In this document: positions 1 through 19,548 of the stretch, one piece after another
Layout of the letters: every line of letters begins with the position of its first letter
How positions within the stretch are numbered: the first letter of the stretch is position 1
NCBI GenBank assembly: GCA_965248265.1
Contig: CBDFJF010000001.1
Location: 2,272,001 to 2,336,000, forward strand
Direction: 5' to 3'
DNA: 64,000 nucleotides
Source of the DNA: Candidatus Latescibacterota bacterium
GTDB lineage: Bacteria > Latescibacterota > UBA2968 > UBA8231
The notes under the pieces: model-generated
Told to the model about the DNA's origin: nothing
The model's database searches: none
Seen by the model: the letters and a program-made list of their open reading frames with translations, nothing else
Position numbers and translations under genes: made by a program

Positions 1-4
1 GATC

Positions 5-3000
5 GTGAATAGGCCGCCTGGCACTCCCTCAGACCTAATAGCCGGCGACTCGGCAGACCGCGTTACCCTGAGTTGGCAGGCCGGTTCCGACGACGCTGAC
101 CCGCCGGCGGAAAGCCTCACCTACAACGCCCGCGTCGGTACGGTGCCCGAAGCAGACGACGTGCTCTCCGGCGCAATCGCTCTGGGCCATGGGAACATCG
201 GCGCCCGCCTGATGCGCGACCTCTCTGGTCTGACCAGTGGTACCTATTACTGGTCCGTGCAGACCGTCGACGTCGGTGGCGCACGCTCCGCCTGGCGCGA
301 CGGTGACCCTTTCATCATCGACACCGTCAATCCTACGCTCGGCGGCTTCTTGTTGAATAAGGATCAGTTTGGATTGGGCCAGACGGTCACCCTGGGACTG
401 TCGTTTCTGGATGAACACTCCGGAGTCAACGCCAACGCCGAGGTTGCGCCGTTGGTGAAGGCCGAAATAGGTGGTACGCCGTTTCCGTTTTCTCAGTTGC
501 TGTTTAGTGGCCGCACCTGGAGTGGTGAACTGGAGGTCACCGCGGACATGCCTTCCGGCGAAGCTGTGTTGTCCGTATCCGGTCTGGTGGACCTGAAGGG
601 CAACTCTCTGGCCGACACGGTCATCGACACCTTTGTCGTTGACACGGATCTGCCGGTCATCGTCGATCGCCTGCCATCAGAGGATGCCACCGGGGTAGCC
701 CAGAGCGCCACAGAGATTGCGATCGGATTCTCCGAAGCCATCGACCCGGCTACAATCACGGTCGACAACTTCGCCGTGACGCGAGCCAATATCCCCGTCC
801 CGCTGAGAATCGAGCGGCCAGCAGACACGTCGGACACGGTCACCCTGATTTTCGAGGAGACGCTGCGACCGGGATCGCTCTACAACGTCGAGGTGTCGGC
901 GGCGATTCAGGATCTGGCCGCGAACCGGCCGGCCGACGCCATTTCCTGGAGCTTTTCCACCCAGATTCCGCAGCTCACGGCGACGGATCCCATGGCGGAG
1001 AGTACCGATGTCCCCCTTGATGATGGCCGTCTGAGCGCCACCTTCGACTCGGGACTGGATGTGTCTGCCCTCACCGACGCCATCGAAATCCTGCGCGACG
1101 AACAGGCGGTCGATCTGCGCGACGACGCCGTCTTCGACACCGAGACCAACACCCTCTCCTTCGAGATCGACGAAGGCCTGTTGCCCGGGAGCCGCTATCG
1201 CGTCGTCCTCTCCGGCCTTTTGGCCGGACCGCTGGGCGCCGTCAGTCAGGGCGATTTTGACTGGCGCTTCACTACCGCGGTGCCGCAGATCTCGAGCCTG
1301 ACCCCCGCCAACGGCGACACCACCGTGTCCGTCGAAGACGACGACATCAGGGCCATCTTCGACCAACGATTGGATCCTGTGGCCGCCCTCACCGCCAGCA
1401 ATATCCGCGTGACCGAGCAAGGGTTGCCGATCGAGACTGACGACGTAGAGTACAATCCCGACACCGGGTCATTGAGCTTTTCACCTGAAGATGGATTGAA
1501 AGCCGGCACGCGCTATGCCGTGACCATTGATGGATCCGTGGGTGGCCTGCTGCGTCAGGAAATCGGTGACTACTCCTGGGACTTCAGCACGGCCGTGCCC
1601 ATGGTCGAGAGTACCGCCCCTCTGGGCGGCGAGATCGTCAGCACCGCCGATCTGACAGCGGCAACGGTTCAGTTTTCCGTGCCACTCGACGACGACCAGG
1701 TCATTCCAGCGAACTTCATTCTCCTGCGTGAGGGCGCTGCCGTTTCGCTGCGAGAAGGAGACCCCGTTGTCCTGGGCCCAGGCCTGTATGGCTTGGCAGA
1801 GACGGATGGTTGGAAGGTCGGCAGCTCCTACGCCATCAGCATTGCCACGACCGTCCAGGGACCGCTTGGCCCAGGGCAGGTCTTGGGGTGGCAGTTTCAG
1901 ACCACCGTCCCCGATACCATCTCCGTGAGTCCTGCCGCCGGCTCGGACGACGTCGATGTGGGCATCTCCGGCATCACTGCCTTGTTCGATGATCTCATCG
2001 ACGAAGGGGCGTTGCAAGCCGAGGGCAATGTCGTCCTCGCGCGTGAAGGGCGTCCGATCGAGATCACCGATCCAATCGGCTACGATCGCGCCGCCGGGGA
2101 GGTGACGATTCCAGTCAGTGATCTCAGAGCCGGAACACCCTACCAGGTGCTCATTGCCTCTGATGTGGCCGGGCCACGTGCGGCCGGAGAATTCCGTTGG
2201 GGGTTCAGCACCCGCATCCCGACTATAGCGTCGACGGTGCCCCCCGATAACTCGTCGATTGCCGCGGGACCTCGCCGTATTCAGCTCATTTTTTCCAGCA
2301 ACGTCGATGAAAGGCTGGCACGCGACCCCGATAACTACCGCCTGACCAGTGGCGGACAATCAATCGAACTGACCGCCGCCGAATTCCTCTACGATGATGG
2401 CAGCTTCACCGTCAGTCTTCCCGAAATCGAATTTTTGTCTGGAACGGGTTACGACCTGATCGTCAATTCCCGTCTGGGCGGACCGCTGGCTCAGCGCCCC
2501 GATGACGAATTCCGTTTCCAGACAGATTTACCGACGGTTGTTGAGACAGAACCGGTCGCCGCATCTGAGGGAGTCGTGACGAGTCATCCGCCCATCAGGC
2601 TGGTTTTTTCGGGCCCCGTGGCCAATCAGGACGCCACCGGGTTTCAATTGCGGGCACGTCCGCTTGCGCAGGCATTGGCAAACAGCGATGCGCCATTCGG
2701 ACTCCTGTCGATCGCAGGGTTTGGCCTGGATCCGACAGGCTCCGAAGTAAACTTCGCTCCTGAAGGCGGCTTCCGACCCTTCACTGAATATCAGGTTCTT
2801 GTGGATCCCAGCGTATTCGGTCAATTGGCCATAGACGGCTTCACCTTGGCCTTCAGCACGGCAGCGCGGATCGGCAATACGGCAAGCGGCGGCACGATTT
2901 CCAATGCGGACCGATCAGTGGAGCTCTATTTCCCTCCGAACGCGCTCTCTGGAGGTGTGGATGGCGAGGTCGTCATCCAGTCGCTTGAGGCAACTGATGC

Positions 3001-3604
3001 CGGCAAGGTGATCACCGTAAAGCCAACGCAGGCCACGCTCACACAGATTGGTCAGGCTTGGGAGATAGACGGGCTGGGAGCCAGCCTGATGAAACCTGCT
3101 ACCCTGACGATGCGCTACACCGATCAGGAACTCGGCAGCCTCAACGCCGCCCGGCTCGGCATATTCAGGCTCGACGGCACCGATTGGGTCCGGATCGGCG
3201 GCACAGCTGATCCAACCGCGGCTCAGGTCCGAACTACAATAGAAGAGTTCGCCGTCTACGCTCTGTTCGAGGACCTCAGTGCCCAGGTCGGCGCTCTCGC
3301 GATCGCCGGCATCGAAGTGCAACCGCAGGCCTTCGCCCCTTCGGGTGGCCGCGGCAACATGCGGCAGGAGACCGATATCTCCTTCGACTTGTCGGGGCCC
3401 GCTGACGTCACTGTACGCGTTTACAGCGCCTCAGGCAGGCTCGAGCGCGTCATCGCTCGGGATACCCCGATGGGGCAGGGCCGCAACTCCCTGGTCTGGG
3501 ATGGGCGCGACGAAGACCGCAAGACCGTGGGCAGTGGCCTTTACATCGTCGTCGTCAGTACCGGAGACGAGCAGGCCGAGAAAGTAGTCGCGGTGGTGAG
3601 ATGA
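5..3604 (+). CDS. Large surface protein (5' end outside window): FN3-like domain, multiple Big_5/SbsA Ig-like repeats, ZU5-like domain, C-terminal FlgD-Ig (T9SS-like sorting) domain
   Basis: Frame is open at the window edge. Repeated 'P..P.......I...F...LD......F.W.F.T' units. C-terminus 'PQAFAPSG..ISFDL...VTVRVYSASGRLER.....WDGRDE....GSGLYIV'. Stop overlaps next ATG (ATGA). Confidence 0.8.
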   Translation: MNRPPGTPSDLIAGDSADRVTLSWQAGSDDADPPAESLTYNARVGTVPEADDVLSGAIALGHGNIGARLMRDLSGLTSGTYYWSVQTVDVGGARSAWRDGDPFIIDTVNPTLGGFLLNKDQFGLGQTVTLGLSFLDEHSGVNANAEVAPLVKAEIGGTPFPFSQLLFSGRTWSGELEVTADMPSGEAVLSVSGLVDLKGNSLADTVIDTFVVDTDLPVIVDRLPSEDATGVAQSATEIAIGFSEAIDPATITVDNFAVTRANIPVPLRIERPADTSDTVTLIFEETLRPGSLYNVEVSAAIQDLAANRPADAISWSFSTQIPQLTATDPMAESTDVPLDDGRLSATFDSGLDVSALTDAIEILRDEQAVDLRDDAVFDTETNTLSFEIDEGLLPGSRYRVVLSGLLAGPLGAVSQGDFDWRFTTAVPQISSLTPANGDTTVSVEDDDIRAIFDQRLDPVAALTASNIRVTEQGLPIETDDVEYNPDTGSLSFSPEDGLKAGTRYAVTIDGSVGGLLRQEIGDYSWDFSTAVPMVESTAPLGGEIVSTADLTAATVQFSVPLDDDQVIPANFILLREGAAVSLREGDPVVLGPGLYGLAETDGWKVGSSYAISIATTVQGPLGPGQVLGWQFQTTVPDTISVSPAAGSDDVDVGISGITALFDDLIDEGALQAEGNVVLAREGRPIEITDPIGYDRAAGEVTIPVSDLRAGTPYQVLIASDVAGPRAAGEFRWGFSTRIPTIASTVPPDNSSIAAGPRRIQLIFSSNVDERLARDPDNYRLTSGGQSIELTAAEFLYDDGSFTVSLPEIEFLSGTGYDLIVNSRLGGPLAQRPDDEFRFQTDLPTVVETEPVAASEGVVTSHPPIRLVFSGPVANQDATGFQLRARPLAQALANSDAPFGLLSIAGFGLDPTGSEVNFAPEGGFRPFTEYQVLVDPSVFGQLAIDGFTLAFSTAARIGNTASGGTISNADRSVELYFPPNALSGGVDGEVVIQSLEATDAGKVITVKPTQATLTQIGQAWEIDGLGASLMKPATLTMRYTDQELGSLNAARLGIFRLDGTDWVRIGGTADPTAAQVRTTIEEFAVYALFEDLSAQVGALAIAGIEVQPQAFAPSGGRGNMRQETDISFDLSGPADVTVRVYSASGRLERVIARDTPMGQGRNSLVWDGRDEDRKTVGSGLYIVVVSTGDEQAEKVVAVVR

Positions 3605-5067
3605 TGGGGCTTGTGAAGCATCGTCATGTATTCGTTGCCTCGGCGCTCATCGCACTATGCCATGCCCTGCCTCTGCAAGCCCAGACTTTTTCGAGCCCTG
3701 CAGCTGCGGCCAATGTGGCTGATGGCGGAGCCTTCAGCACCAATTCCAGCTGGGGCGATTTTGATGGTGATGGCGATATAGATGCTTACGTGACCAACTG
3801 GGTATCGCTACCTAACCCACTATACCAGAACAACGGCGATGGCTCTTTTATCGACGTTGCAGAGGCCAAGGGTGTCACTGACCTCGGTAACAGTGTGGCA
3901 GCTGCTTGGGGCGACTACGACAACGACGGCGATCTCGATCTCTATGTGGTCGACTTCCGAGTGCAGGATCAACTATTCGAAAACACAGATGGCAGTTTCG
4001 CCGAAATCGGCCGTACCCGCGAGCTCATCAACCTTATTAAGTTGGGCAGTGAAACCTCGGTTGCCTGGGGTGATTACGACAACGACGGCTTCCTCGACCT
4101 CTACCTGGGCAAGTATTACCACGACAACGAGCTGTACCACAATTCGGGCGACGGCAGCTTCGAACCCGTGACCGACCTCGGTGTTGGCGATCGCCGCGAC
4201 ACCAACGGGTTCACCTGGGTCGATTACGACAACGACGGCGATCTGGACCTTTATGTCGTCAATCGCGACCAGGAAAACGGCCTCTACCGCAACGACCTGA
4301 GTGATGACAGTGTCTTCACAGAACGTGCGTGTGCCCTGTCCGTAGCCAACACGGAAATCGGCCAGAACGGCACCTGGGGTGACTACGACAACGACGGCGA
4401 CCTGGATCTGTTCCTCGCCAATGTCGGGGCCAACAACCTCTACCGTAATGACGGCGCCGAGAGCTTCGTCGATGTCGCCGACGCCGCCGGCGTGCGCCAG
4501 GCGTCGTCGGGCTGGATCACGGCGATGGCGGCATGGGCCGACTACGATGGCGATGGGTTTCTCGATCTGTACACAGCCAACGGCGGCGACGAGCTCCAGC
4601 AGGAAGATGTGCTCTTCGCCAGCAACGGCAACGGCACCTTCCGCAACGCCACCGCGGATGCGCTGCTGTCCACGGCCGGCAGCGCGCATTTGTCGACTAC
4701 CTGGGTTGACTTCGATGGCGACGGCGCACCCGATCTCTACAGCACTGATGGCTGGGGATTCGGCAACATCCTTTCACTCAACGAGACACCCGACGAACGC
4801 TTCATCAAAGTGACCGTGCGCGGCAAGGGTGCTGCTGCCGGAGGCAACAACATCTTCGGCATCGGATCGCAGGTGCGGCTCTTCGATGCGGAGACCGATG
4901 CCCTCGTCGCCTACAGGCAAGTGCTGTCGAGCTCCAGCCCGGGGGAGGTGACCTTCGGAGCTCCAGCGGGACCCTACAACGTCCAGGTTCGTTTTCCCGG
5001 CAATGAAATTCCCATGATCGTCGGCAATGTCAGCGGCGGCGAAAGCATCACGATCGAAGAGCCATGA
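3601..5067 (+). CDS. Secreted FG-GAP/CRTAC1 (ASPIC-UnbV) beta-propeller protein
   Basis: Signal peptide; seven W(G/V/A)D(Y/F)D(N/G)DG..D..Y/F Ca-binding repeats; C-terminal 'N.FGIGSQVRL' ASPIC/UnbV-like segment. Confidence 0.85.
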   Translation: MMGLVKHRHVFVASALIALCHALPLQAQTFSSPAAAANVADGGAFSTNSSWGDFDGDGDIDAYVTNWVSLPNPLYQNNGDGSFIDVAEAKGVTDLGNSVAAAWGDYDNDGDLDLYVVDFRVQDQLFENTDGSFAEIGRTRELINLIKLGSETSVAWGDYDNDGFLDLYLGKYYHDNELYHNSGDGSFEPVTDLGVGDRRDTNGFTWVDYDNDGDLDLYVVNRDQENGLYRNDLSDDSVFTERACALSVANTEIGQNGTWGDYDNDGDLDLFLANVGANNLYRNDGAESFVDVADAAGVRQASSGWITAMAAWADYDGDGFLDLYTANGGDELQQEDVLFASNGNGTFRNATADALLSTAGSAHLSTTWVDFDGDGAPDLYSTDGWGFGNILSLNETPDERFIKVTVRGKGAAAGGNNIFGIGSQVRLFDAETDALVAYRQVLSSSSPGEVTFGAPAGPYNVQVRFPGNEIPMIVGNVSGGESITIEEP

Positions 5068-8000
5068 GCGCTCGCGTCAACGGCCATCGCCTTCAACGGC
5101 TCCACGACCGGCGCTTCGGCAGTCTTTTGCCGGGTCTGCTGGCACTCGTCATCGCCTCAGCCCCTTTTGCTGCCGAGGCCACTGCGCGCCAGACGGATGT
5201 GGGCGTGCGCGCGATCAGCATGGGAGGCGCCTTCGTCGCTGTCGGATCCGACGCGACCGCCATCTACTGGAATCCAGCGGCGATCGCCGCCTTACAGCGC
5301 CAGGAACTCGACCTGGATTACGCCGATCACTTCGGCCTGGGTCTGAATGAGGCTCATCTGAGCTACGTCCTGCCTGCGACCGCCAACCACGCGCTGGGAA
5401 TTGATTGGTTCCACCGCGGCTTCGACGATGTCAGCGGCGGACTGGGGCTCAAATCCGGCTTCGACCGCATCTCCTTCGCCTACGGCTACCGCAACGGCAT
5501 CCGGCGGTTGCGTCCCTGGATCGGCAACACCTCCATCGGCATCGCTGGCAAGTACGTGTCGCAGGACACCGACCTCGATGGCCAATCCGTCATGAGCGCT
5601 TCCGGCCTCGGCCTCGACCTGGGAGTACTGGTGCCGCTGCTCCACAACCTGCGTTTGGGATTCTCGATTCAGGACCTGGGCGGCACGTCGGTCGAGCACG
5701 ACAGCGGACTCAACGAACAGATCTTCGACGCCAATTACCGTGTGGGTCTGGCCTACAAACCCCCGATCGAGGGCTTGACCCTTGCAGCCGACATCGATGA
5801 CCATGCGCGAGTCGGCGCCGAGTACTGGATCGCCAGCCAGCTCGCCCTCAGGGCCGGCCTCAAGACCGAGCTGGACACGCCGGAGAGCCAGAGTGATGCA
5901 ACCACGGCGTCCTTCGGAGTCGGGGTCAAGTACCGCTACGCCGAACTTGATTATGCGTATGAACGGCATCCCGTCCTCGACGTCACCCACTATACGTCAC
6001 TGTCGCTTTCCTACAATCCACGGGTGGTGACGATAAAGGATGCCACGGTCCGGCCGAGTCCGATTTTCCGCTCGCTCTACCAGCATTACCAGGAAAACGA
6101 TTTCTTCGACGTCGTCATCGGCAACTCAGCCCCGGAGCCGATCGAGGCGACCGTCGGCATCATGCTGCCGAAGGTGATGACGGTGCCTCATCAGGAAACC
6201 GTCGTACTGCCGGCTCAGAGCACGGAGAAGTACACCTTCAAGGTTACGTTCGACGAAGATCTCTTCAACCAGCCTGAGGCCTACTACGACAATTTCGTGT
6301 TGCCCGTCGTCAGTGTCAGTTATACCCGCGGTCGCCGCGACCAGACCGTCGACAAGCAACTCGAGCGCGTCTACGTCGCCGGCAAGGGCAAACTGAGTTG
6401 GAATGTTGACGGCATGGCTGCCGCCTTCGTAACCCCGGCGGACCTCGCCGTCTCCGGAATGGCTCGCGGCATGATACAGATCTACGACGAGCTCCTGAGC
6501 GGCAAGTTCAACCGCTCCAACATCGGCAAGGCTGCCATCCTCTTCGACGCCATGGGCGTGCACAGTCTGAGTTATCAGGCGGACCAGAAGACGCCTTTCG
6601 CCAATGTTTCCGACGACAAGACGATCTTCGACACGGTGCAGTACCCGAGCGAATTGCTCTACAAGGAAGAAGGCGTCGACACCAAGATCGGCGACTGCGA
6701 TGACCTGACCGTCCTCTATGCCTCATTGCTGGAGAACCTGAGCATCGACACGGCTTTTCTTGAGGCCAATGACCCGGGCAAGGGCCATATCTACCTGATG
6801 TTCGATAGCGGCATCCCCAGCGATCGCGTCGAAGACCACTTTCTCAGCTCGGCGGAATACGTCGCCTGGGAAGGCCGCATCTGGATCCCGATCGAAACCA
6901 CCATGTTCGGGTTCACCTTTGGTGATGCCTGGCGCAACGGGGTGGCCGAATACAAGCGCCTGAAGCCCCTCAAGCTCATCGACGAGGTCTATGTCCAGAA
7001 GTGGATGCAGATCTACAAGCCGGCGGTCTTGCCGCCTGCCATCGTAGAGCTGCCCTCGATGGCAGACGTCGACTCGCTTCTGTCTCGCGATATCGCCTAC
7101 CTGGACCAGCGCACGGACCAGATTGCCCTGAGTGCGGTTACTTCATTGGAGACGGCGGACGGTGCCTACGATGCTGGAGTGGCCTACTTGCGCGCCAACC
7201 ACCTGGAAAAAGCGTTGGGCATGTTCGATCGGGCACTCGGCATGAATCCGAACCACGCGGATGCCATCAATGCCCGCGGCGTGGTACTGACCAAGAGGGG
7301 TTCGTACGACGAGGCGCTGCAACTGTTCAGGCGCGCCCTGGAACTCGACGACAACAACGGCTTCCGCATGAACATCGCCCTCGCCTATTACATGAAGGGT
7401 GAGCGCGAATCCGCCAACCTGATGTTCGAGGGGGTGGTGGCCCTGGATGAATCGTATTCCCAGCTCTTCGACTTCCTCGCTGACGTCGGAGCCGCCGAGG
7501 AATTCTACGAGGTGGGCGTCAGCTATCTGCGCCAGAGCAACCTCGACAAGGCGCTGGAACAGTTCGACCAGGCCGAGGCCGCGGATCCACAGTTCGCCGA
7601 TGCCGTCAATGCCCGTGGCGTGGTGCTGAGCAGAAAGGGGCGTTATCCAGAGGCGCTGGAGCAGTTTGAGCTCGCCGCCCAGATGGATACCGATCAGCTG
7701 GGCTATCGCCTCAATGTCGCCCTGGCTCATCATCTGTTGGGGAACCCGAAGCGAGCCGAGACTCTGTACCGGCAGGTTGTCGCCGTCGATGACGGCTATG
7801 AAGGTTTGTTCGATTTCCTCGAGGCCACTGAGTCGGCTGAGCAGTACTACCAGCTGGCGGCCGGTTACATGCAACAGCGTCGTTGGGACAAGGCGTTGGA
7901 GTATCTCGAGTACGCGTTGAGTGGCGATCCCGAAATGGGGGATGCGCACAACGCCCTCGGTGTGGTGCTGACGCGTCAGGGAGATTACGATGGCGCTTAC

Positions 8001-8174
8001 ACTGCCTTCTCCCAAGCTGAGGCGTTGATGCCGACCAACGCAGGTGTCATGATCAACATGGCGATCGTCCGCTACCTGCAGGGGCGTCGGCACGAGTCGG
8101 CAGTCCTGTACCGGCAGGTTGTGGAGATGGACAGCCGGTACGAGGGTTTCCTCGATTTTCTGACCGTGGAGTAG
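5064..8174 (+). CDS. PorV/UPF0164-like beta-barrel fused to transglutaminase-like domain and C-terminal TPR repeats
   Basis: 'GVRAISMGGAFVAVGSDATAIYWNPAAIA' is a PorV/FadL-type N-terminal motif. 'GDCDD..LYASLLE...GHIYL...WIPIETT' gives a Cys/His/Glu set. About 9 TPR-like helical repeats. Confidence 0.8.
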   Translation: MSARVNGHRLQRLHDRRFGSLLPGLLALVIASAPFAAEATARQTDVGVRAISMGGAFVAVGSDATAIYWNPAAIAALQRQELDLDYADHFGLGLNEAHLSYVLPATANHALGIDWFHRGFDDVSGGLGLKSGFDRISFAYGYRNGIRRLRPWIGNTSIGIAGKYVSQDTDLDGQSVMSASGLGLDLGVLVPLLHNLRLGFSIQDLGGTSVEHDSGLNEQIFDANYRVGLAYKPPIEGLTLAADIDDHARVGAEYWIASQLALRAGLKTELDTPESQSDATTASFGVGVKYRYAELDYAYERHPVLDVTHYTSLSLSYNPRVVTIKDATVRPSPIFRSLYQHYQENDFFDVVIGNSAPEPIEATVGIMLPKVMTVPHQETVVLPAQSTEKYTFKVTFDEDLFNQPEAYYDNFVLPVVSVSYTRGRRDQTVDKQLERVYVAGKGKLSWNVDGMAAAFVTPADLAVSGMARGMIQIYDELLSGKFNRSNIGKAAILFDAMGVHSLSYQADQKTPFANVSDDKTIFDTVQYPSELLYKEEGVDTKIGDCDDLTVLYASLLENLSIDTAFLEANDPGKGHIYLMFDSGIPSDRVEDHFLSSAEYVAWEGRIWIPIETTMFGFTFGDAWRNGVAEYKRLKPLKLIDEVYVQKWMQIYKPAVLPPAIVELPSMADVDSLLSRDIAYLDQRTDQIALSAVTSLETADGAYDAGVAYLRANHLEKALGMFDRALGMNPNHADAINARGVVLTKRGSYDEALQLFRRALELDDNNGFRMNIALAYYMKGERESANLMFEGVVALDESYSQLFDFLADVGAAEEFYEVGVSYLRQSNLDKALEQFDQAEAADPQFADAVNARGVVLSRKGRYPEALEQFELAAQMDTDQLGYRLNVALAHHLLGNPKRAETLYRQVVAVDDGYEGLFDFLEATESAEQYYQLAAGYMQQRRWDKALEYLEYALSGDPEMGDAHNALGVVLTRQGDYDGAYTAFSQAEALMPTNAGVMINMAIVRYLQGRRHESAVLYRQVVEMDSRYEGFLDFLTVE

Positions 8175-8378: not shown

Positions 8379-8888
8379 ATGAGACTGATAACCGGATTGA
8401 TCGTGATCGCATTGGTGGGCTGGACGACGGACGGACTGCTTGCCGAGGAGAGCGCGAGCCAGGAACCAACCACGACCGCATCGACGACCGAGGGTGAGCC
8501 GGATGAGGAGTGGTTGAATACCGTCTGGACCCAGGTTGACGATATGGTCAAGCAGGAGTCCCTGGAGCTGCAGAAGACGGTCACCGTGGCCGGTGTGCGT
8601 GGCGCCGAGGCCGAGGATTCGATCCTCGACAAGCTCTACTACAAGGGTGCCAAACGCTATCCCAGTCAGGACAAACTGCGCAAGGCCGTCGACTCCTTGA
8701 AGCAGGCTCTTGGCAAGGCTCCCAAGGGTCCCAATGCGGCTAAGCAGAAGTTTTTCATCGCGCAGTGCTATGAGAAGCTCGGGCAGACGGAGACCGCCAG
8801 GGATTTCTACGGACAGGTCGCCTCAGATCATCCTGAGAGCAGTTTTGCCGAGAAGGCTGGCAAGAGGGTGAGCGCGCTACAGCCGTAG
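8379..8888 (+). CDS. Secreted TPR protein with 'TVAGVRGAE' motif
   Basis: AGGAGG RBS at 8365-8370; signal peptide; C-terminal CpoB-like TPR 'FFIAQCYEKLG...A...Y..V...HP.S.FA'. Confidence 0.75.
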   Translation: MRLITGLIVIALVGWTTDGLLAEESASQEPTTTASTTEGEPDEEWLNTVWTQVDDMVKQESLELQKTVTVAGVRGAEAEDSILDKLYYKGAKRYPSQDKLRKAVDSLKQALGKAPKGPNAAKQKFFIAQCYEKLGQTETARDFYGQVASDHPESSFAEKAGKRVSALQP

Positions 8889-8986: not shown

Positions 8987-11722
8987 ATGGCGATAAGTAC
9001 TGACAGAGACTCACTGATCCAACTGGCGATTGGCCCCCTCGTCGCGCTGGTGATATTCACCCTGAGCTTCACCAAGGCGCTGGAGCGGGCAGAGCTGCTC
9101 AGCTACGACTGGCGCTTGAACGTGCGCAACAACCTGTTCGGGCCGCCCGTCATGGATCCCCGGTTGGGCACCATCGACATCGATGACAAGAGTATCGAAT
9201 CGGAAGGGCGTTACCAGGACTGGACCCGGGACAAGTACAAGGACGTCGTCTCAATCCTCAGCCGCTTCGGGGCGTCGGCACTTGCCTTCGATGTTTATTT
9301 CACCGAGCCCTCGGCTCGGGTGATCTCTGAGAGCCAAGTTGCGGCCTGGTCCTCCATCGACAGCACCTCGTTGAGCAACCTGTTCCGCCAGGAGGACCAC
9401 GATCGCAGCTTCCAACGCTCGATCACGCGAGCCCAGAATGTCTACCTGGCCCAGTTCACGGTGATGGGAGACGATGACGTGCTGCCGCGTACGCCAGACA
9501 AGGAGGCCGCCCTTTCCTGGCTGAGAGACAACGCTCCGCGTATCGCTGATCCCGAGAGCAGTACTCTGTCCCGTATTATCGATTTCACCCCACCCTTCCA
9601 CACCCTGCGCGATGCGGCCCGGGGCTTCGCCTTTGCTCAATCCATCGCCGATGTCGACGGCGCGCGTCGCCGCTACCCACTCGTTTATCAGTACGAGGAT
9701 GTCCCCTTCCCCTCATTGGCGCTGGTGGTGGTGTGCGACTACCTCGGCGTGCCGATGACGAACGTCGTCATCACCCCGGGGTTGAGCGTTCACATTCCCA
9801 ACGCCTCCATCTCTGATGGTGTGCGGCGTGACATCGATATCCCCATCGACGACAGCGGCACGATGATCGTCAACTGGACGGGGTTGTGGGACGAAACCTT
9901 TGTCCATTTCCCGCACATCGGCCTCCGTTGGGCTGCCAAGCAGCTTCTCCTCGACCGCATCAAGGAACTGTTCGGGAGCGGCACGAGGAACCCGGGAAAG
10001 ATAAAAAGTCAGCTGAGGTCCGAAGGACACGAAGACCCCGAGGAGAATGGCAACGCGCTCAGCAGCTTCGGCCGCTCCTACGGAATCGAACGGGCGATAC
10101 AGGGTGGCGCCAGCGACGCAGTGGAATTCTGGCGCTCAAGAGGACTCCAGAACCCGGGTGAGGCCCAGATTGGCATGTTCGAGCAGATCGCCGTCAACAA
10201 CAGAGTCGCTCAGTTGCTGGAGACCGATGCGAAAATGACGTCCCAGAATTTGAGGAGCGCCATCGCCGCGGACTCTGCGCAAATCGCCGAAAGCGAGGCC
10301 TACGTGCGTGGACTCCTCGTCGATGACCGCGTCCCCGCTTCCTCCAGACCGCTCTACTACTACCCGTTCAGCGTCTTCGAGGGTAGCGTTCTCACGATGG
10401 CCGACATCGAGGGCAAGATTCTCTTTTACGGGCTGACCGCGACCGGTACCGAGGATCTCAATGTGACACCGTTCCAGGGGGATTACCCGATGGTGGGAAT
10501 CTACCCCAACGTCATGAACACGATCCTGCTTAGTCAGTTTATCCAGCGCATACCGCCGTGGATCGACGCCTTGCTGACCTTCGCCTTCGGCGTGTTGCTG
10601 TCGCTGGTGATTCCACGGCTACGGGTGCTCCTGGGGGCCAGCTTCGTCCTCGTCGTCGTCCTGCTCTATGCGACCATCGCCTTCCTCGCCCTGTCGCATG
10701 CCGGCTGGTGGCTGGATGCCGTTGGACCGCTGGGGACCCTCGTCGTCGGCTACCTGGCAATCACCATATACGGCTACGTGATCAAAGAGCGGGAGAAGGA
10801 GTTTGTCCAGGGCGCGTTCGGACACTACCTGTCCCCGGCCGTCGTTGATGAGATCATGAACAACCCCGACATGATCAATCAGCTTGGTGGAGAGGAACGC
10901 GTGATGACCTCGTTTTTCTCCGATGTCGCCAGTTTTTCGACGATCTCGGAGTGTCTCACCCCCAGCGAGTTGGTAGCCTTCATCAACGACTACCTCAGCG
11001 AAATGTGCGTCATCATCGAGCACTACGGCGGCACCATCGACAAGTTCGAAGGAGACGCCATCCTGGCCTTCTTCGGTGCCCCTGCCGTCCTCGAGGATCA
11101 CGCCATGAGGGGAACTCTGTCGTGCATCGATCAACAGCGCAAGCTCCTCGAGCTGCGAGAACAATGGGCCACCGATCGCTCGTTGCCACCGGCGCTTTAC
11201 ACGCTGTGGGATAACTGGACCGCCCAGGGCCGCATCTTCGCCCACGTACGCATGGGCATGACAGCCGGTCCGATGGTCGTCGGCAACATGGGCTCGCGCA
11301 CCCGCACCGACTACACCATGATGGGGGACACCGTCAACCTGGCGGCCAGGTTCGAGAGCGGCCAGAAGATCTACGGCACCGGCATCATGGTTAACGGCGC
11401 CGTCTATGAGGCCGTCGAGGACGCGGTCGAGGCCCGCAAGCTGGATCTGATTCAGGTCATGGGCAAGGAAGAGCCGGTGACCGCCTACGAGATTCTGGAG
11501 CGCAAGGGTGAGTTGGATTCCACCAAGTCCGAAGTGCTCGAACTCTATAATCAGGGACTCGCCACCTACGAGCGCTTCGAATTCACTGAGGCCAAGAAAC
11601 TGTTCGACCGCGCTCTGCAGATCGACCCCACCGACGGCCCCTGTGCCCTGTACGCCGATCGCTGTGAAGACTTCGCGATCAATCGCCCCGACGATCTGAT
11701 TTTCCGCGCCGAAAGCAAGTAA
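8987..11722 (+). CDS. CHASE2-domain class III adenylate cyclase
   Basis: N-terminal TM; CHASE2 motifs (LSYDW, IDIDDKS, DVDGARR); three TMs; catalytic FSDVASFS, DKFEGDA and YTMMGDTVNLAARFE (K/T specificity residues indicate ATP). Confidence 0.92.
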   Translation: MAISTDRDSLIQLAIGPLVALVIFTLSFTKALERAELLSYDWRLNVRNNLFGPPVMDPRLGTIDIDDKSIESEGRYQDWTRDKYKDVVSILSRFGASALAFDVYFTEPSARVISESQVAAWSSIDSTSLSNLFRQEDHDRSFQRSITRAQNVYLAQFTVMGDDDVLPRTPDKEAALSWLRDNAPRIADPESSTLSRIIDFTPPFHTLRDAARGFAFAQSIADVDGARRRYPLVYQYEDVPFPSLALVVVCDYLGVPMTNVVITPGLSVHIPNASISDGVRRDIDIPIDDSGTMIVNWTGLWDETFVHFPHIGLRWAAKQLLLDRIKELFGSGTRNPGKIKSQLRSEGHEDPEENGNALSSFGRSYGIERAIQGGASDAVEFWRSRGLQNPGEAQIGMFEQIAVNNRVAQLLETDAKMTSQNLRSAIAADSAQIAESEAYVRGLLVDDRVPASSRPLYYYPFSVFEGSVLTMADIEGKILFYGLTATGTEDLNVTPFQGDYPMVGIYPNVMNTILLSQFIQRIPPWIDALLTFAFGVLLSLVIPRLRVLLGASFVLVVVLLYATIAFLALSHAGWWLDAVGPLGTLVVGYLAITIYGYVIKEREKEFVQGAFGHYLSPAVVDEIMNNPDMINQLGGEERVMTSFFSDVASFSTISECLTPSELVAFINDYLSEMCVIIEHYGGTIDKFEGDAILAFFGAPAVLEDHAMRGTLSCIDQQRKLLELREQWATDRSLPPALYTLWDNWTAQGRIFAHVRMGMTAGPMVVGNMGSRTRTDYTMMGDTVNLAARFESGQKIYGTGIMVNGAVYEAVEDAVEARKLDLIQVMGKEEPVTAYEILERKGELDSTKSEVLELYNQGLATYERFEFTEAKKLFDRALQIDPTDGPCALYADRCEDFAINRPDDLIFRAESK

Positions 11723-11868: not shown

Positions 11869-12564
11869 GTGAACGGGTCTTTGAAGTGGTTCTTCGCCGG
11901 CCTCGCCCTGGTCTTCGTCGCCTGCGCGGGTCGCAGCCAGGATGCGGTATCTGCGGCGGATGAGGAAACCGAGCTGCGCAGCGAAGTCGAGGACTTGAAG
12001 CGCGCGGTCAACGCTTCCTACGATCGCGAACGAGCCCTGGCGGAACGCCTCCAGAGCACGGAAGAGAGCAACGCTCAATTGCGCCGCGAGTTCGAAAAAC
12101 AGCTCGGCGAGTTGGGATCGCTGAAGGGTAGACTGGATACCCTTTCTGCATCGTCACCGACACCCATGGCCAGGAGATCATCCGCTGTCGGTGTACCACG
12201 ACGATACGAAGCGGCCCGAGCCCTCTACAACGATCGTCTGTACGACAGGGCGGTAAAGGAGTTCGCGACGATCCTGAGCGGTTCACCCGGCAGTGACCTG
12301 GCTGACAATGCCCAGTACTGGATCGGCGAGTGTTATTATGGCATGGGCAGATTTCGTCAGGCACTGACCGAATTCACCAAAGTCTTCGCCTACCGCAACA
12401 CGGAAAAAGACGACGACGCACAACTGAAGATCGCGCGATGTTACCTCTCCCTGGGCGAAAAAGACCGGGCTCTAATGGCATTGCGAAAACTGATCGACGA
12501 GTACCCGGAAAGTGAGTATGTCGCCAACGCCCGCAGAGAAATCCGCTATCTCCAGGGTCCCTGA
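11869..12564 (+). CDS. cpoB: Tol-Pal associated CpoB/YbgF-like TPR lipoprotein
   Basis: Lipobox FVAC; coiled coil; 'ADNAQYWIGECYY', 'DAQLKIARCY', 'LIDEYPES'. Confidence 0.75.
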   Translation: MNGSLKWFFAGLALVFVACAGRSQDAVSAADEETELRSEVEDLKRAVNASYDRERALAERLQSTEESNAQLRREFEKQLGELGSLKGRLDTLSASSPTPMARRSSAVGVPRRYEAARALYNDRLYDRAVKEFATILSGSPGSDLADNAQYWIGECYYGMGRFRQALTEFTKVFAYRNTEKDDDAQLKIARCYLSLGEKDRALMALRKLIDEYPESEYVANARREIRYLQGP

Positions 12565-12622
12565 GCCTGACGATCCAGTTCGGGAACCGCAGGCGGAGTC
12601 GAGCGTGTTTCCGATACCTGAT

Positions 12623-13252
12623 ATGCAACCCCATCTTCTCATCATCGTTGGCCTGTCAGTTTGTGCCTTGTTGTGCGGCCCTGCACGCGCGGCCACGTTC
12701 ACGGTCACGACCGACGTGGACCTGGTCATACAGGCGGCGTCAGCGGCGGTAGAGAGCGGAGTGGCCAACCTCGACGCCAGCCGCGATAGTGTAACCTGGA
12801 AGTCCCCTCTGCTGGTCGTGGCTCAGGAGAAGCACGAGGCTAACTGGATTATCGAGCACCTATTGATTGAACAGATGTTGTCGCGAGGCACGACCGTTGT
12901 ACTGGATTCCACTGCTATCAGCATGTCCGAGTCCAGGTTGTCCTACCGGATCGTCGACCTCAACATCCGAGGCTCGTCCGGGCTGATGGGAAGCTCCGTT
13001 TCCCGCGAATGCCGTATCACCACGGCCCTGCGCTTGAGCAACGAGTCCGATGGCGCCGTGCTCTGGCAGGATGAGTCCAGCGGCCACCAGGACGACCGCG
13101 TACCCAAGACGCACCTCGACGCTCTCAACAATGACGACTACGGATTTGCCGATACCCGAGTCGAAAAACGCAGCTGGGGAAAAGTCGCCGAACCCGCTAT
13201 CGTTTCGGGAGTACTGGGCAGCCTGGTCTATTTCTTTTTTTCCAACCGATGA
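12623..13252 (+). CDS. Hypothetical exported protein with C-terminal membrane anchor
   Basis: Signal peptide; C-terminal 'EPAIVSGVLGSLVYFFFSNR'; stop overlaps the bamD start. Confidence 0.65.
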   Translation: MQPHLLIIVGLSVCALLCGPARAATFTVTTDVDLVIQAASAAVESGVANLDASRDSVTWKSPLLVVAQEKHEANWIIEHLLIEQMLSRGTTVVLDSTAISMSESRLSYRIVDLNIRGSSGLMGSSVSRECRITTALRLSNESDGAVLWQDESSGHQDDRVPKTHLDALNNDDYGFADTRVEKRSWGKVAEPAIVSGVLGSLVYFFFSNR

Positions 13253-14019
13253 CCACGTCTCTCACCAACACAACACCGGTTTTTGCTCTGTTACTGGCCG
13301 CCTTGCTGGTGGCCTGCGGTGGGGACAAGGTGGCCCCCCTCCGAGGGGTCGAATATTTCTACGGTGAGGGTCAGAAGGCGTTCGAGCGCAAACGCTATCT
13401 GGACGCGATTGAGCACTTCCGCCGCGTCGTCAGCAATTTCCCGGGATCCTCGAGAGTCGCTGACGCGCAGTACTACCTGGCAGAGTCCCATTTCCGGCTC
13501 AAGGACTACGTCAACGCTTCCTTCGAGTACCAGCGTCTCGTGGACGCCTATCCGAGCAGCGAGTGGGCGGCCAAAGCCAAGTTTCAGGTCGGGGAGTCCT
13601 ACTTCCTTCAACGACGGCGATCAGAGCTGGACCAGAAGGAAACACTCGAGGCGATCATCCATTTCAGGAACTTCATCGAAGATTTTCCAGATAGCCCGCT
13701 GACTGAGACCGCCCGCGAACGCATCGTCGAGAGCCGCTCGCGCCTGGCCAAAAAGGAATACGACGCCGCCCGCCTGTATGAGAACCAAGACTACTACGAA
13801 GCGGCGAGGATCACCTACGAAGCCACCATGAGGAGTTATCCCGACACCCGTTGGTACTACGAGTCAAAAGCGCGCCTGGGAATAATCTCAAAAGAAGAGG
13901 GCGACCTGGTGACGACTCGTATGCACTGGAACGAGGTGGTCGAAGAGTCAGCCGATGAGAAGCTGAAGGAGCAGGTCCGCGAATGGCTGCGAGAGCTGGA
14001 TCCTCCGGTCCCGGAATAA
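13249..14019 (+). CDS. bamD: Outer membrane protein assembly factor BamD
   Basis: Lipobox LVAC; TPRs; 'ELDQKET..AI..F..FI..FP.S', 'RLAKKEY..ARLY', 'YPDT'. Confidence 0.88.
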   Translation: MTTSLTNTTPVFALLLAALLVACGGDKVAPLRGVEYFYGEGQKAFERKRYLDAIEHFRRVVSNFPGSSRVADAQYYLAESHFRLKDYVNASFEYQRLVDAYPSSEWAAKAKFQVGESYFLQRRRSELDQKETLEAIIHFRNFIEDFPDSPLTETARERIVESRSRLAKKEYDAARLYENQDYYEAARITYEATMRSYPDTRWYYESKARLGIISKEEGDLVTTRMHWNEVVEESADEKLKEQVREWLRELDPPVPE

Positions 14020-14029: not shown

Positions 14030-14623
14030 GTGAACGACCGACTCGGAATCGTCGGCGGTACCTTCGATCCCATCCACCATGGGCATCTGCTCCTCGCCCG
14101 TTTTGTGAGCGAGAAGATGGACCTCGATAAGGTTCTCTTCATCCCTGCTGCAACACCTCCGCACAAGGATCACCGCGATGACATCGCCCCCAGCGCCTGC
14201 CGCTGGGCCATGGTCGAACTCGCCCTCGAAGGCATCGATGATTTCGAGGCCTCACGCAGCGAACTGGATCGCCCTGGACGTTCCTACACCATTGACACCT
14301 TGCGCCAGTTGCGCGACGACCACCCCGATGACGAATTCTTCCTCATCGTCGGCACCGATAACACCCATGATCTGTCGAACTGGCACGACCCCGAAAGCAT
14401 ACTGGGGTTATGTACAGTTGTGGCCGGTTCACGGACCCTCGACTCGGGCGACCCCGGGCTCGACGTTATCGGCGCACAAGTCCACGTCGTCGACACCCCC
14501 GTCATCGATATCTCGTCTACGCAGATTCGCCAGCGGATCCGGGCAGGACTGCCCGTACACTCGATGATGCCGGACAAGGTGGCCGCCTACATCCGAGAAC
14601 GGAGGTTGTACTCAGACACATGA
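14030..14623 (+). CDS. nadD: Nicotinate-nucleotide adenylyltransferase
   Basis: GGTFDPIHHGH, PPHK, SYTIDTL and ISSTQIR motifs. Confidence 0.96.
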   Translation: MNDRLGIVGGTFDPIHHGHLLLARFVSEKMDLDKVLFIPAATPPHKDHRDDIAPSACRWAMVELALEGIDDFEASRSELDRPGRSYTIDTLRQLRDDHPDDEFFLIVGTDNTHDLSNWHDPESILGLCTVVAGSRTLDSGDPGLDVIGAQVHVVDTPVIDISSTQIRQRIRAGLPVHSMMPDKVAAYIRERRLYSDT

Positions 14624-15810
14624 GCTTTCTCACCCATCTCGAATGCTCCCGTACCGGCGCTCACTACGACGCCGACCAACTCCACAATCTTTCAGATGAG
14701 GGCGCACCCCTGCTTGCTCGCTACGACCTGGATGCCGTGGGCGCCACCGTTAAACCCGGTGACTTTGCCGGGCGCCGTCCGGACATGTGGCGCTACCGCG
14801 AGGTGTTGCCGTTGCGATCTCTTGATGAAGAGGGTGAGAGCGAGATCATTTCGTTGGGAGAGGGCTTCACGCCTTTGCGCTCTACTCCAAGCCTTGGAGC
14901 GGTGCTGGGCCTGCGGCGATTGTTCATAAAGGATGAATCCGTGAACCCGACCGGCTCCTTCAAGGCCCGTGGCCTGTCCGCGGCCGTGACCGGGGCCGTC
15001 GCCCGAGGCGCGCGCAAACTCGCCATCCCCACGGCCGGCAATGCCGGTGGAGCATTAGCCGCCTACGCTGCCGCCGCCGGCCTCGAGGCTTTCGTCTTCA
15101 TGCCGGCAGACACACCGATCGCTTTCCAGATCGAATGCCGATCGTGCGGCGCCCATCTGGAGCTCATCGATGGATTGATCAACGACTGCGGTGCCATTGT
15201 CGGTCAGCGCAAGGAGGCCGAGGGCTGGTTTGATGTGTCGACGCTGAAGGAGCCCTATCGCGTCGAAGGCAAGAAGACCATGGGCTATGAACTGTTCGAG
15301 CAGTTCAACGGAGTGCTTCCCGACGTCATCCTCTATCCGACTGGCGGTGGCACGGGATTGATCGGTATGTGGAAGGCCTTCGACGAGATGGAACAGATGG
15401 GCTGGATCGACAGCCGGCGGCCACGCATGGTCTCCGTGCAATCCGCTGGATGCGCCCCGATCGCTCGCGCTCTGGAGGAAGGCACCGAATCGGCACGTCC
15501 GTGGGAAAACGCTCAGACCAGGGCCTCCGGGCTGCGAGTGCCGGTAGCCGTAGCCGACTTTCTCATGCTGCGGGCGATCCGAGAAACCGGAGGCTGCGCC
15601 GTCATGGTCAGCGACGAGGAGTTGGTCGAGGCCACCCATGAGATCGCCCGTCATACCGGCATTTTCGCCGCCCCCGAGGGAGGCGCGACCTTCGCTGCCC
15701 TGCGCAAACTGCTCGAACGCAACGAAATCGAAGCGGACGAGCGCATCGTCCTTTTCAATACCGGCAGCGGCTATAAGTACCTGGAGTTGTTGGCTGACCC
15801 GCCGGCTTGA
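14620..15810 (+). CDS. thrC: Threonine synthase (fold-type II PLP enzyme)
   Basis: SLGEGFTPL, NPTGSFKARG and PTGGGTG motifs; ATG overlaps the nadD stop. Confidence 0.85.
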   Translation: MSFLTHLECSRTGAHYDADQLHNLSDEGAPLLARYDLDAVGATVKPGDFAGRRPDMWRYREVLPLRSLDEEGESEIISLGEGFTPLRSTPSLGAVLGLRRLFIKDESVNPTGSFKARGLSAAVTGAVARGARKLAIPTAGNAGGALAAYAAAAGLEAFVFMPADTPIAFQIECRSCGAHLELIDGLINDCGAIVGQRKEAEGWFDVSTLKEPYRVEGKKTMGYELFEQFNGVLPDVILYPTGGGTGLIGMWKAFDEMEQMGWIDSRRPRMVSVQSAGCAPIARALEEGTESARPWENAQTRASGLRVPVAVADFLMLRAIRETGGCAVMVSDEELVEATHEIARHTGIFAAPEGGATFAALRKLLERNEIEADERIVLFNTGSGYKYLELLADPPA

Positions 15811-15949: not shown

Positions 15950-16039
15950 TTTATAAGCAGTAAGAAAACAGGCACTTACGCCGTCTTTTCTGACGAGATG
16001 CAAGTGCCTTTGACCTGCCCCCGTCGTTTGGGCCAAGTG

Positions 16040-16910
16040 TCATGAGAGTAATGTTGTTTTTCGGGTAGCTCCAACAGGCGGCTGCCCCGGTGTGTGGTGC
16101 TGTTGTGCAAACTGCTCTGGTGTGAGATCGTTGAGTCCACTGTGTGGTCGAATGGTATTGTAGTTCTGTCGCCAGTCTTCGAGGGTACGACGAGCATCGG
16201 CCATGCATGAAAACCAGTGTTCGTTGAGGCACTCGTCTCGGATCTTGCCGTTGAAGCTCTCTACGTACGGGTTTTGGGTGGGTTTTCCCGGAGCAATGAA
16301 GTTGAGACGGACGCCATGCCGGTACGCCCACTCGTCCAGCGCTTTGCCACTGAATTCAGGCCCGTTATCGACCAGCAGCGAGATAGGCAGACCATGAGAA
16401 GTGACAAGCTCATCGAGGACTCGGCACACTCGCAAGCCAGGCAGAGACGTGTCTACCTCACTGGCCAGACAACGGCGGCTGAAGTCATCGAGGACGTTGA
16501 GGACGCGAATGCGTCTGCCATCCGCCAACTGGTCGGACATGAAATCCATAGACCATCGCTGGTTGAGGGCGGTTGCTGGCATCGGCTGACGGCCACGTTC
16601 TTTCGACCTGCGCCGTTTTCTCCGATGAGGAATCTGTAAGTGCTCCTGACGATAAACCCGGTAGATGCGCTTGTGATTGTCCGTCCATCCTTCGCGCCGC
16701 AGCAACAACAACAGACGTCGGTACCCCCAGCGTCGCCGGCGCTTGGCCTGGGTCCGCAGAGCCGCTGCCAGTGGCGCATCCGGGCGGTCCTGCGGTCGAT
16801 AGTGATACGTGCTGCGATGGAGTCCAAGAAGCCCACAGACGCGACGGCAGCTGACCTGAAACATCCCCTGGAGGTGATTCACGGCTCGTCTTTGCGCTGC
16901 GGGCGTTACC
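16040..16910 (-). CDS. IS3 transposase OrfB (rve DDE), probably joined to OrfA by a -1 frameshift
   Basis: WSMDF, DNGPEF and [12 protein letters not shown] motifs. The -1 frame at the orfA end reads [12 protein letters not shown] (AAGAAAC site). Confidence 0.9.
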
Positions 16911-17172
16911 AGTTTCTTGAGTTGACTTCCTTGAGCATCTGGATATCTAGTGCCTGGTCGGCGACGATTCGCTTCAGTCGTCGATTCTCATCCTCCGCCT
17001 GTTTGAGGCGCTTAGCATCGCTAACATCCATGCCGCCGAATTTGGCCTTCCAGCGGTAGAATGTGCCTTCGGCAATGCCGTGCTTACGACTCAGATTAGC
17101 GACCGTGACGCCCGCTTCGGCTTCCTTCAGGATGGCGATAATCTGCTCTTCCGTGAACCGCTTGCGCTTCAT
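16906..17172 (-). CDS. IS3 transposase OrfA
   Basis: [19 protein letters not shown]...[14 protein letters not shown] region. Confidence 0.92.
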
Positions 17173-17452
17173 GAGATGTCCTCCTGGCCTCAACGGTAGG
17201 CCGGTGAACTCTCATTGACAATGGGCCAATTTCAGGGGGCAAGGTCATCAACGCCCACCCCAACACGCCATCGTCCGAACACGGCTCGATGTGCTGCTGT
17301 GGCCTGCCCAACAACTGCGACCAGCTACCGTCATCGTGGTAGAGCCACAGTTCGATGGGTGGTCCGGAGATTACGGTGAGTTTGGGGACGCAGCCAGCCA
17401 TGGGACGAGTGTAGTCGGTGGGGGTGGAGCGTCAAGAGGTGGTGCGAGAGTG

Positions 17453-18345: not shown

Positions 18346-18400
18346 CGCACACCGCCCTTAATATTTGCTCTCGACAAAACGTCTGTGGGTTAGTGACCCC

Positions 18401-19539: not shown

Positions 19540-19548
19540 TTCGAGCCG

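Follow-up and report, generated by a model that had tools for sequence, protein, structure and literature searches.

A PorV-like outer membrane barrel fused to a predicted transglutaminase-fold enzyme, with conserved gene partners, in a Latescibacterota bacterium and in other phyla

Within a 64,000-nucleotide stretch of a Candidatus Latescibacterota genome (GenBank assembly GCA_965248265.1, contig CBDFJF010000001.1, positions 2,272,001 to 2,336,000; hereafter the window), an open reading frame (ORF) with an ATG start at positions 5064 to 8174 of the forward strand, on which all features described below lie unless stated otherwise, encodes a protein of 1,036 amino acids. In this protein a signal peptide and a PorV-like barrel are followed by a beta-sandwich, a predicted transglutaminase-fold domain and an array of tetratricopeptide repeats (TPRs). 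A first-pass annotation of the window had proposed such a fusion of a PorV-family barrel to a papain- or transglutaminase-fold domain with conserved Cys, His and Glu residues and C-terminal TPRs, and the analyses reported here support it. Homology searches indicate that the barrel-enzyme fusion is a large unannotated family present across several phyla and not a one-off. Its gene is commonly accompanied by those for a large secreted protein with a C-terminal sorting domain (CTD), a small secreted protein and, in many lineages, a nucleotide cyclase. In the reading that we favor, to which a probability of roughly 35% is assigned, the barrel would dock the CTD of the giant protein encoded upstream, a periplasmic LapG-like protease would cut the small protein, and the outcome would often feed the cyclase.

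Domain architecture and predicted fold

Residues 46 to 318 (window positions 5199 to 6017) are predicted to form an outer membrane barrel of the PorV/PorQ family with an N-terminal hatch motif. Using the NCBIfam models, it was found that residues 46 to 316 match the PorV/PorQ family NF033709 over profile positions 11 to 325 of 326, with 92.7 bits against a cutoff of 90; the equivalog models were not passed (PorV NF033710, 36.6 bits against 250; PorQ, 31.8 against 220; PorV2, 57.7 against 325). A search of PDB sequences with a barrel profile made from six family members retrieved PorV of Flavobacterium johnsoniae (6h3i_F) at an E value of 3.4e-13, the match covering its residues 5 to 395 of 402, with a FadL-like protein as runner-up (E 0.29). 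The Pfam family UPF0164 matched the ORF weakly (E 0.055). In the full-length AlphaFold2 model, for which a 64-row alignment served as input and the mean predicted local distance difference test score (pLDDT) was 90.2, a helical N-terminal segment is followed by 16 predicted strand elements at residues 80 to 317 with pLDDT values above 90. The PorV/FadL-type N terminus described in the first-pass annotation is thus real, given the NF033709 score above cutoff and the match to 6h3i_F, and by its profile matches the ORF belongs to the PorV/PorQ family in the broad sense and counts as a TPR protein as well.

The barrel is joined to the catalytic domain by a beta-sandwich linker at residues 320 to 446 (6021 to 6401), for which AlphaFold2 predicts strands at residues 322 to 445 with high pLDDT. 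What had been called an Ig-like linker is this confidently modelled beta-rich region, though it carries no Pfam name. When 270 proteins were scored with our own profiles, the linker accompanied the catalytic domain in 252. The catalytic domain itself, assigned to residues 447 to 693 (6402 to 7142) from its own model, Foldseek and the Pfam matches of its relatives, appears in the full-length model as a mixed alpha/beta domain at residues 451 to 650. Since TPR proteins were all that Foldseek retrieved for the full-length model, residues 446 to 695 were modelled alone, which gave a pLDDT of 92.4 and a predicted template modeling score of 0.91.

Three short motifs hold the putative catalytic triad: GDCDD at residues 543 to 547 (6690 to 6704), with the nucleophile Cys545 (TGC at 6696) flanked by acidic residues; GHIY at residues 574 to 577 (6783 to 6794), with His575 (CAT at 6786); and WIPIETT at residues 607 to 613 (6882 to 6902), with Glu611 (GAA at 6894) as the third triad residue. 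A script check of the ORF placed the three codons exactly where the first-pass annotation had put them. In the AlphaFold2 model, Cys545 opens a helix (545 to 558), His575 starts a strand (575 to 581) and Glu611 directly follows another (605 to 610). A nucleophilic Cys at the start of a helix, with His and the acid at strand ends, is the classic arrangement of the transglutaminase/papain fold.

With the lone catalytic-domain model as the query, the top Foldseek match in the PDB was the periplasmic protease LapG of Pseudomonas (4u65_E, E 0.022, probability 0.89). Further matches comprised Rad4/XPC, PNGase, a Cytophaga protease (3isr), CPR-C4, 3kd4, other LapG entries, RavJ, PeiW/PeiP (E ~0.5), vasohibin and a transglutaminase. 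Most of these we take to be transglutaminase-fold proteins. Relatives of the domain were also compared with Pfam. Whole-length relatives yielded results dominated by TPR families. At least 22 of 30 distant relatives had sub-threshold matches to Transglut_core (PF01841) or DUF553 (PF04473), one of the eight without such a match having been judged on the best 25 of its 43 families. The curated cutoff was passed by one of the 30 (P0167, DUF553, 26.0 bits against 20.5). In all 12 matching stretches that were inspected, the GDCDD cysteine lay inside the stretch, and the matches were centered on the Cys helix. Among the language-model neighbors in the ESM Atlas, 12 to 28% of members carried PF01841 or PF04473. 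On account of these Pfam and Atlas results, the weak structural matches and the positions of Cys, His and Glu at helix and strand ends, the catalytic domain is weakly placed in the transglutaminase/papain fold (Pfam clan Peptidase_CA).

In the transglutaminase-like superfamily, Glu is an accepted third triad residue, an acid at the second position past the nucleophile aligns with one of the calcium ligands of LapG, and several chemistries occur, among them those of proteases, transglutaminases and N-acetyltransferases (PMC4866520). The calcium of LapG sits beside its triad (PMC4359373). Asp547, two residues after Cys545, occupies the position of this ligand and is kept in 266 of 267 homologous domains.

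The C-terminal TPR array spans residues 696 to 1036 (7149 to 8171) as three tandem blocks of ~105 amino acids. Pfam matches to TPR_2 (E 5e-39) and TPR_1 (E 6.2e-35) cover residues ~696 to 1030, and helical pairs are predicted by AlphaFold2 at 698 to 1022, so that the TPRs noted earlier were readily recovered. Each block ends in (L/F)(F/L)DFL. The C39 PA2778 peptidase family was set aside as a candidate, as its NCBIfam match lay in the TPR region only (residues 919 to 1020) and reached 41.2 bits against 150.

Conservation and distribution of the family

The Cys-His-Glu triad is complete in 258 of the 267 homologous domains, and in 150 of 155 proteins that also bear the barrel; the motifs recur far more often than chance would allow. 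Within GDCDD, the G, the first D and the C are each kept in 265 domains, the next D in 264 and the last D in 266. His is retained in 261 domains; Glu likewise occurs in 261, with Asp in one, so that the Glu remarked on earlier in place of the usual Asp is the rule in this family. None of 26 full-length relatives departs from Cys or Glu, and 25 of them also have the His. The nine exceptions among the 267 domains are mostly fragments at contig ends, together with a His-less subclade of three proteins (P0087, P0088 and P0090). These proteins of ~800 amino acids have Arg or Gly for the catalytic His and retain Cys and Glu (Gln in one), and from these substitutions they are possibly inactivated paralogues.

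A word-indexed search with the middle region of the protein returned 213 relatives, mostly of ~1,000 amino acids; their public names, where there are any, are of the type "tetratricopeptide repeat protein," from bins labelled Latescibacterota or Gemmatimonadetes. Using the enzyme domain in an exhaustive HMMER search, 1,910 cluster representatives were found at E ≤ 0.001, and 1,510 at E ≤ 1e-10. A GDCDD-based scan of reference genomes gave 469 confirmed relatives. The family signature comprises GDCDD, GHIY/F and W.P.ETT, with an obligatory N-terminal beta-sandwich.

Of the 270 proteins scored with our own profiles, 166 have barrel, linker and enzyme, 86 have linker and enzyme with no barrel, and 15, largely fragments, have the enzyme only. 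The barrel-less forms begin with two-component-regulator propellers and Y_Y_Y, or with NHL repeats, and end in TPRs; most carry signal peptides. Going by the taxon names on the records, barrel forms were identified in Latescibacterota, Neomarinimicrobiota, Zixibacteria, KSB1, Eisenbacteria, a Brevinema bin and a Cytophagia-labelled bin, and barrel-less forms in Gallionellaceae, Nitrospirota, Gammaproteobacteria, Mariprofundaceae and a Spirochaetes bin. At one locus (L038, ~9000 to 11700), an enzyme gene without its barrel part is immediately preceded by a transposase that clusters with the IS3 transposase of the window, and in a complete chromosome (L019, 10121 to 12049 and downstream) the barrel-enzyme and cyclase genes each appear split into two ORFs; both cases may be disruptions or assembly errors. 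A limited literature search found no description of the barrel-enzyme fusion or of the four-gene set to which it belongs.

Gene partners, predicted docking and rival explanations

The window begins with the gene of a giant secreted protein (2 to 3604, its 5' end lying beyond the window edge), which carries Big_5 Ig repeats (E 3.8e-61, five stretches) and a CTD and is the presumed cargo or partner of the barrel. Its FlgD_ig match reached 29.7 bits against a cutoff of 27, and its TIGR04183 (Por_Secre_tail) match 23.6 bits against 23. With our own CTD model, the domain was located at residues 1105 to 1200 (3314 to 3601, E ~1e-36); it is of the type ..QPxxFxPxGG..GRLERV..WDGRD..G..V.SGLYIVV.., for which 29 CTDs were aligned, and is the one CTD of this type in the window. 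Between the giant-protein and barrel-enzyme genes is that of an FG-GAP/VCBS repeat protein of 488 amino acids with a signal peptide (3601 to 5067; FG-GAP_3, E 8.5e-47). The three successive genes are joined by 4-nt ATGA overlaps at 3601 to 3604 and 5064 to 5067 and therefore look translationally coupled, as far as their layout can tell. Homologues of the FG-GAP protein were found upstream of the barrel gene at 18 loci, and homologues of the giant protein directly upstream in related loci; in other phyla, its counterparts consist of FG-GAP or regulator propellers and Big_5 repeats, with the same C-terminal domain at the end. At 37 of the 49 loci in which the barrel-enzyme gene has more than 400 bp of upstream sequence, a CTD-bearing protein is encoded by one of the two closest ORFs upstream on the same strand, frequently with stop/start overlaps of 4 nt.

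Docking of the CTD on the barrel was modelled with barrel residues 40 to 320 and the last 100 residues of the giant protein, our own alignments being the input. The resulting interaction prediction scores from aligned errors (ipSAE) were 0.86, 0.86 and 0.85, whereas the highest of the three controls scored 0.00; 93% or more of the contacts recur between runs, with partner pLDDT values of 85 or above. When the tool was calibrated, 116 of 157 solved complexes attained this mark, as did 2 of 215 mismatched pairs. The association of the PorV-like barrel with CTD cargo implied by the first-pass annotation is supported by both the gene neighborhoods and the controlled complex model.

The CTD contacts fall on the hairpins joining strands 1 and 2, 3 and 4, 5 and 6 and so on, and on the mature N terminus of the barrel. 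By convention, such hairpins of outer membrane barrels are extracellular loops, and a chain that leaves after an even number of strands exits on the periplasmic side. By this usual orientation, the CTD is predicted to dock on the external face, and the extension, which follows 16 strand elements, should exit on the periplasmic side; the model thereby places the linker, enzyme and TPRs probably in the periplasm, opposite the docked cargo domain. The signal peptides of the barrel-less forms also speak for this location, and three FadL-like proteins of Treponema with presumptively periplasmic C-terminal TPR extensions offer a precedent (PMC8407342).

These results bear on a reading drawn from the first-pass annotation, that the enzyme takes the place of PorU, the gingipain-like sortase of the type IX secretion system, at the surface, removing the cargo CTD or cross-linking the cargo to a surface anchor after capture by the barrel. 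The PorV-like barrel, the CTD cargo encoded upstream at most loci, the docking model that passes its controls and the intact triad are all compatible with such a role, as is the finding that the 64-kb window holds no PorU-like gene; family scans of the window likewise gave no SprA/Sov, PorZ or GldKLMN. At the level of sequence, the enzyme is unrelated to PorU: NCBIfam gave no PorU match in the ORF, and the sole match to a PorU model in the neighborhood is the sorting-domain tail of the giant protein (E 0.02). A periplasmic enzyme on the side opposite the docked CTD argues against a PorU-like surface sortase, as do the 86 of 270 proteins in which the module occurs with neither a barrel nor CTD cargo and the position of the invariant partner motif, described below, in a small periplasmic protein and not in the cargo. 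Replacement of PorU is consequently considered unlikely; the looser alternative, in which the enzyme processes a neighboring protein, fits its most constant neighbor, which the first-pass annotation had not singled out.

That neighbor is a small secreted protein of 169 amino acids encoded immediately downstream (8379 to 8888; its ATG is preceded by AGGAGGA), which has a YbgF/CpoB-like TPR tail and gave no curated family match, only sub-threshold YbgF/CpoB. It contains the motif AGVRGAE (8589 to 8609), a candidate recognition or cleavage site. Using a six-frame profile search of loci with at least 700 bp of downstream sequence, a homologue was found close downstream of the enzyme gene at 37 of 47 barrel-type and 12 of 18 barrel-less loci. 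It usually lies within ~180 bp of the enzyme-gene stop, with displacement at L001, L019, L036, L067 and L068. The pattern G[VIL][RK]G[ASG] is present in 44 of 50 homologues; in the barrel lineages the form is VAGVRGAEAED, of which VAGVRGAEA.D is conserved at 80% or above. The stricter G[VI]RG[AS] occurs 34 times among the 916 ORFs of the loci, and 33 of these occurrences are in small-protein clusters. Judged by these counts, the small AGVRGAE protein is the most constant partner of the enzyme module. At L041 to L043 the small protein is present with a degenerate motif (for example, AARRHGD in L041), and in Eisenbacteria (L050 and L059) a different TPR protein of 226 to 234 amino acids with LGIR(T/S)D takes its place.

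This partner also helps in weighing other roles for the enzyme. It could be a cell wall tether or remodeller, an endopeptidase or transpeptidase on peptidoglycan peptides that anchors or accommodates the barrel and its cargo in the manner of PorE. PorP-like barrels bind cognate cargo and are tied to peptidoglycan by the periplasmic PorE (PMC9143113); the pseudomurein endoisopeptidases PeiW and PeiP are among the fold matches (E ~0.5), and a periplasmic location would suit the role. LapG, Rad4 and PNGase match better than PeiW and PeiP, however, Pfam and NCBIfam scans detected no peptidoglycan-binding domain, and neither the co-conserved AGVRGAE protein nor the cyclase would be explained. We therefore find a role in the cell wall no easier to favor than the replacement of PorU. 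The fold, the Cys-His-acid triad and the nearest Pfam families, Transglut_core and DUF553, would also fit a true cross-linking transglutaminase that polymerizes the small protein or fixes it or the cargo to an envelope protein; but the invariant core of AGVRGAE contains no Gln or Lys, the best structural match is a protease, and the superfamily carries several chemistries (PMC4866520), making this very doubtful. Least probable is a noncatalytic scaffold in which the triad is a relic of the fold, as the Rad4/XPC transglutaminase-like domains among the best fold matches and the His-less subclade might suggest, because the retention of Cys, His and Glu, each in 261 to 265 of 267 domains across phyla and architectures together with GDCDD and W.P.ETT, is an active-site signature.

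Downstream of the small protein, the window encodes a protein of 911 amino acids with a CHASE2 sensor (E 4.8e-35), a class III nucleotide cyclase domain (Guanylate_cyc, E 1e-14) and TPRs (8987 to 11722). Of 52 barrel-type loci, 31 have a CHASE2 cyclase within the examined flanks, and of the 23 with at least 4 kb on both sides, 15 do; the cyclase stands beside only two truly barrel-less loci, both in Gallionellaceae. Beyond the cyclase gene lie a YbgF/CpoB-like TPR protein (11869 to 12564; 83.4 bits, the cutoff being 90.1), an ORF of 246 amino acids without a name (12512 to 13252) and a BamD homologue (13249 to 14019; 145 bits against 81.4), all three being kept in 11 closely related loci. In the Marinimicrobia loci L020, L022, L024, L029, L030 and L034, the cyclase is preceded by a T2SSB-like protein and by a secretin of 430 to 450 amino acids that has an STN domain. 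The order is secretin genes, cyclase, giant CTD protein, barrel-enzyme and small protein, and the cargo could be exported by this other route. The last gene shared in synteny is at 14410 to 15810. Just past it is an IS3-family transposase on the reverse strand (16040 to 16882, 244 bits). The next ~10 kb (~16000 to 26000) have a lower G+C content, 0.52 to 0.59 against ~0.60, and none of their ORFs matched a family above cutoff; this region may be an inserted island. A protein of 297 amino acids with a C-terminal PilZ domain (30244 to 31137; E 8.3e-8), which suggests a receptor for cyclic di-GMP (c-di-GMP), has no apparent relation to the barrel-enzyme locus.

In the reading given at the outset, the barrel would be the dedicated docking partner of the CTD of the giant propeller/Ig protein encoded upstream, with the linker, enzyme and TPR array hanging into the periplasm. 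The enzyme would be an active LapG-like cysteine protease, possibly calcium dependent, and the TPR array would recruit its substrate, for which the small downstream protein, cut at or near AGVRGAE, is the best candidate. In many lineages, the outcome would probably feed the periplasmic CHASE2 sensor of the neighboring cyclase.

The barrel-less forms contribute to how the parts of this assembly are seen. At the barrel-type locus L071, the separate upstream protein can be aligned, starting at its residue 1, to the first 580 residues of an enzyme protein that has no barrel (37% identity, E 8e-98), and many such pairings of a split upstream protein with the N terminus of a barrel-less enzyme were found. 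There are accordingly two encodings: propeller, linker, enzyme and TPRs as one chain, or a propeller-CTD protein followed by a barrel-linker-enzyme-TPR protein. The CTD-barrel pair of the split forms is located precisely at the covalent junction of the fused ones.

Several observations count against the favored reading. Every PDB match of the catalytic domain in Foldseek has an E value of at least 0.022, with none at or below 0.001, and the template modeling scores are ~0.3 to 0.4; residues 321 to 693 have no Pfam family even at E ≤ 10; and the domain found no PDB sequence match either singly or as a 10-row profile, which gave spurious matches to pentatricopeptide repeat designs only. The sequence cannot separate a protease from transglutaminase, transpeptidase or amidase chemistry. 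PorV-containing assemblies exist in the PDB (found with 6h3i), and the passing barrel-CTD model, computed from our own alignments, may mirror likeness to solved PorV-cargo structures. The fused forms keep propeller and enzyme in one compartment, whereas the split forms would place them across the outer membrane. Finally, the partners are not universal: the CTD protein was not seen at 12 of 49 loci, several of which have very short flanks or merged or miscalled ORFs; 10 of 47 barrel-type loci and 6 of 18 barrel-less loci lack the small protein; and 21 of 52 barrel-type loci, as well as nearly all true barrel-less ones, lack the cyclase.

A more elaborate proposal, which we regard as quite improbable, joins the same parts into a surface-sensing relay across the envelope. 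The giant propeller/Ig protein would be displayed outside the cell with its CTD plugged onto the PorV-like barrel, which would act as a noncovalent joint through the outer membrane to the enzyme-TPR module; bacteria without the barrel would fuse the propeller directly. A ligand or surface contact would switch on the cysteine protease, which would cut the small AGVRGAE protein, and the CHASE2 domain would read the cleavage product, so that an event outside the cell would become a cyclic-nucleotide signal.

The kinds of component described here are already known; what is new is a widespread, unannotated transglutaminase-fold subfamily that the Pfam and NCBIfam models of today miss, together with a novel architecture for a PorV-type protein and a gene set that is conserved. 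The occurrence of this set in several uncultured phyla suggests an undescribed cell envelope system. The known roles of PorV-type barrels are those of passive shuttles or anchors for secreted cargo, and a cysteine enzyme and TPR platform of their own would add a catalytic step. The four genes, for CTD cargo, barrel-enzyme, small motif protein and CHASE2 cyclase, constitute a system open to experiment in phyla of which few members, if any, have been cultured, and the locus could give a first handle on the inputs of CHASE2 sensors.

Comparison with known systems

Compared with F. johnsoniae PorV (6h3i), the window barrel is alike in that its profile matches nearly the whole of PorV and that a cargo CTD is predicted on its loops. 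It differs in failing the PorV, PorQ and PorV2 equivalogs and in having a C-terminal extension of 720 residues, which is absent from PorV. PorV also serves many cargos, whereas the window barrel is encoded with one particular cargo.

A second comparison is with PorP/SprF-like barrels, which hold their own type B cargo and have periplasmic PorE attached (PMC9143113). Both systems have a FadL-family barrel beside one large CTD-bearing surface protein and a TPR-containing periplasmic component on the barrel. Here, the periplasmic part is instead one chain with the barrel and includes a cysteine enzyme; the window barrel scores with the PorV/PorQ family and not as PorP, and its cargo CTD is FlgD_ig/type A-like. 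The FadL-like proteins of Treponema pallidum resemble it in having a FadL/PorV-type barrel, 14-stranded in their case, followed by a presumptively periplasmic TPR-containing extension, and the weak UPF0164 match of the ORF is a further point of likeness, but they have no beta-sandwich or catalytic domain between barrel and TPRs (PMC8407342).

The distant relatives of the catalytic domain match Transglut_core (PF01841) and DUF553 (PF04473) from the Cys helix through the His strand. The window protein itself has no match to these families at E ≤ 10 and carries its own signature and the obligatory beta-sandwich. On the basis of its model, the domain would work like the LapG/BTLCP proteases but is no sequence member of these or of the Pfam transglutaminase-core families.

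LapG (4u65, 4fgo), the calcium-dependent protease of the Lap adhesin system, is the best structural match of the domain, and both have acidic residues beside the nucleophile. LapG is periplasmic, as the window enzyme is presumed to be, and in both systems the genes sit with those for a giant surface protein and a cyclic-nucleotide signaling protein. There is, on the other hand, no detectable sequence similarity between the two enzymes, and the triad acid is Glu in the window protein and Asp in LapG. LapG is soluble and held by LapD, whereas the window enzyme is fused to an outer membrane barrel and TPRs; the Lap system has a c-di-GMP receptor where a CHASE2 class III cyclase is found here, and an N-terminal retention module on its cargo in place of a C-terminal sorting domain. 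If real, the structural and logical parallel with the release of the LapA adhesin by LapG, achieved through unrelated parts, would be an instructive case of convergence.

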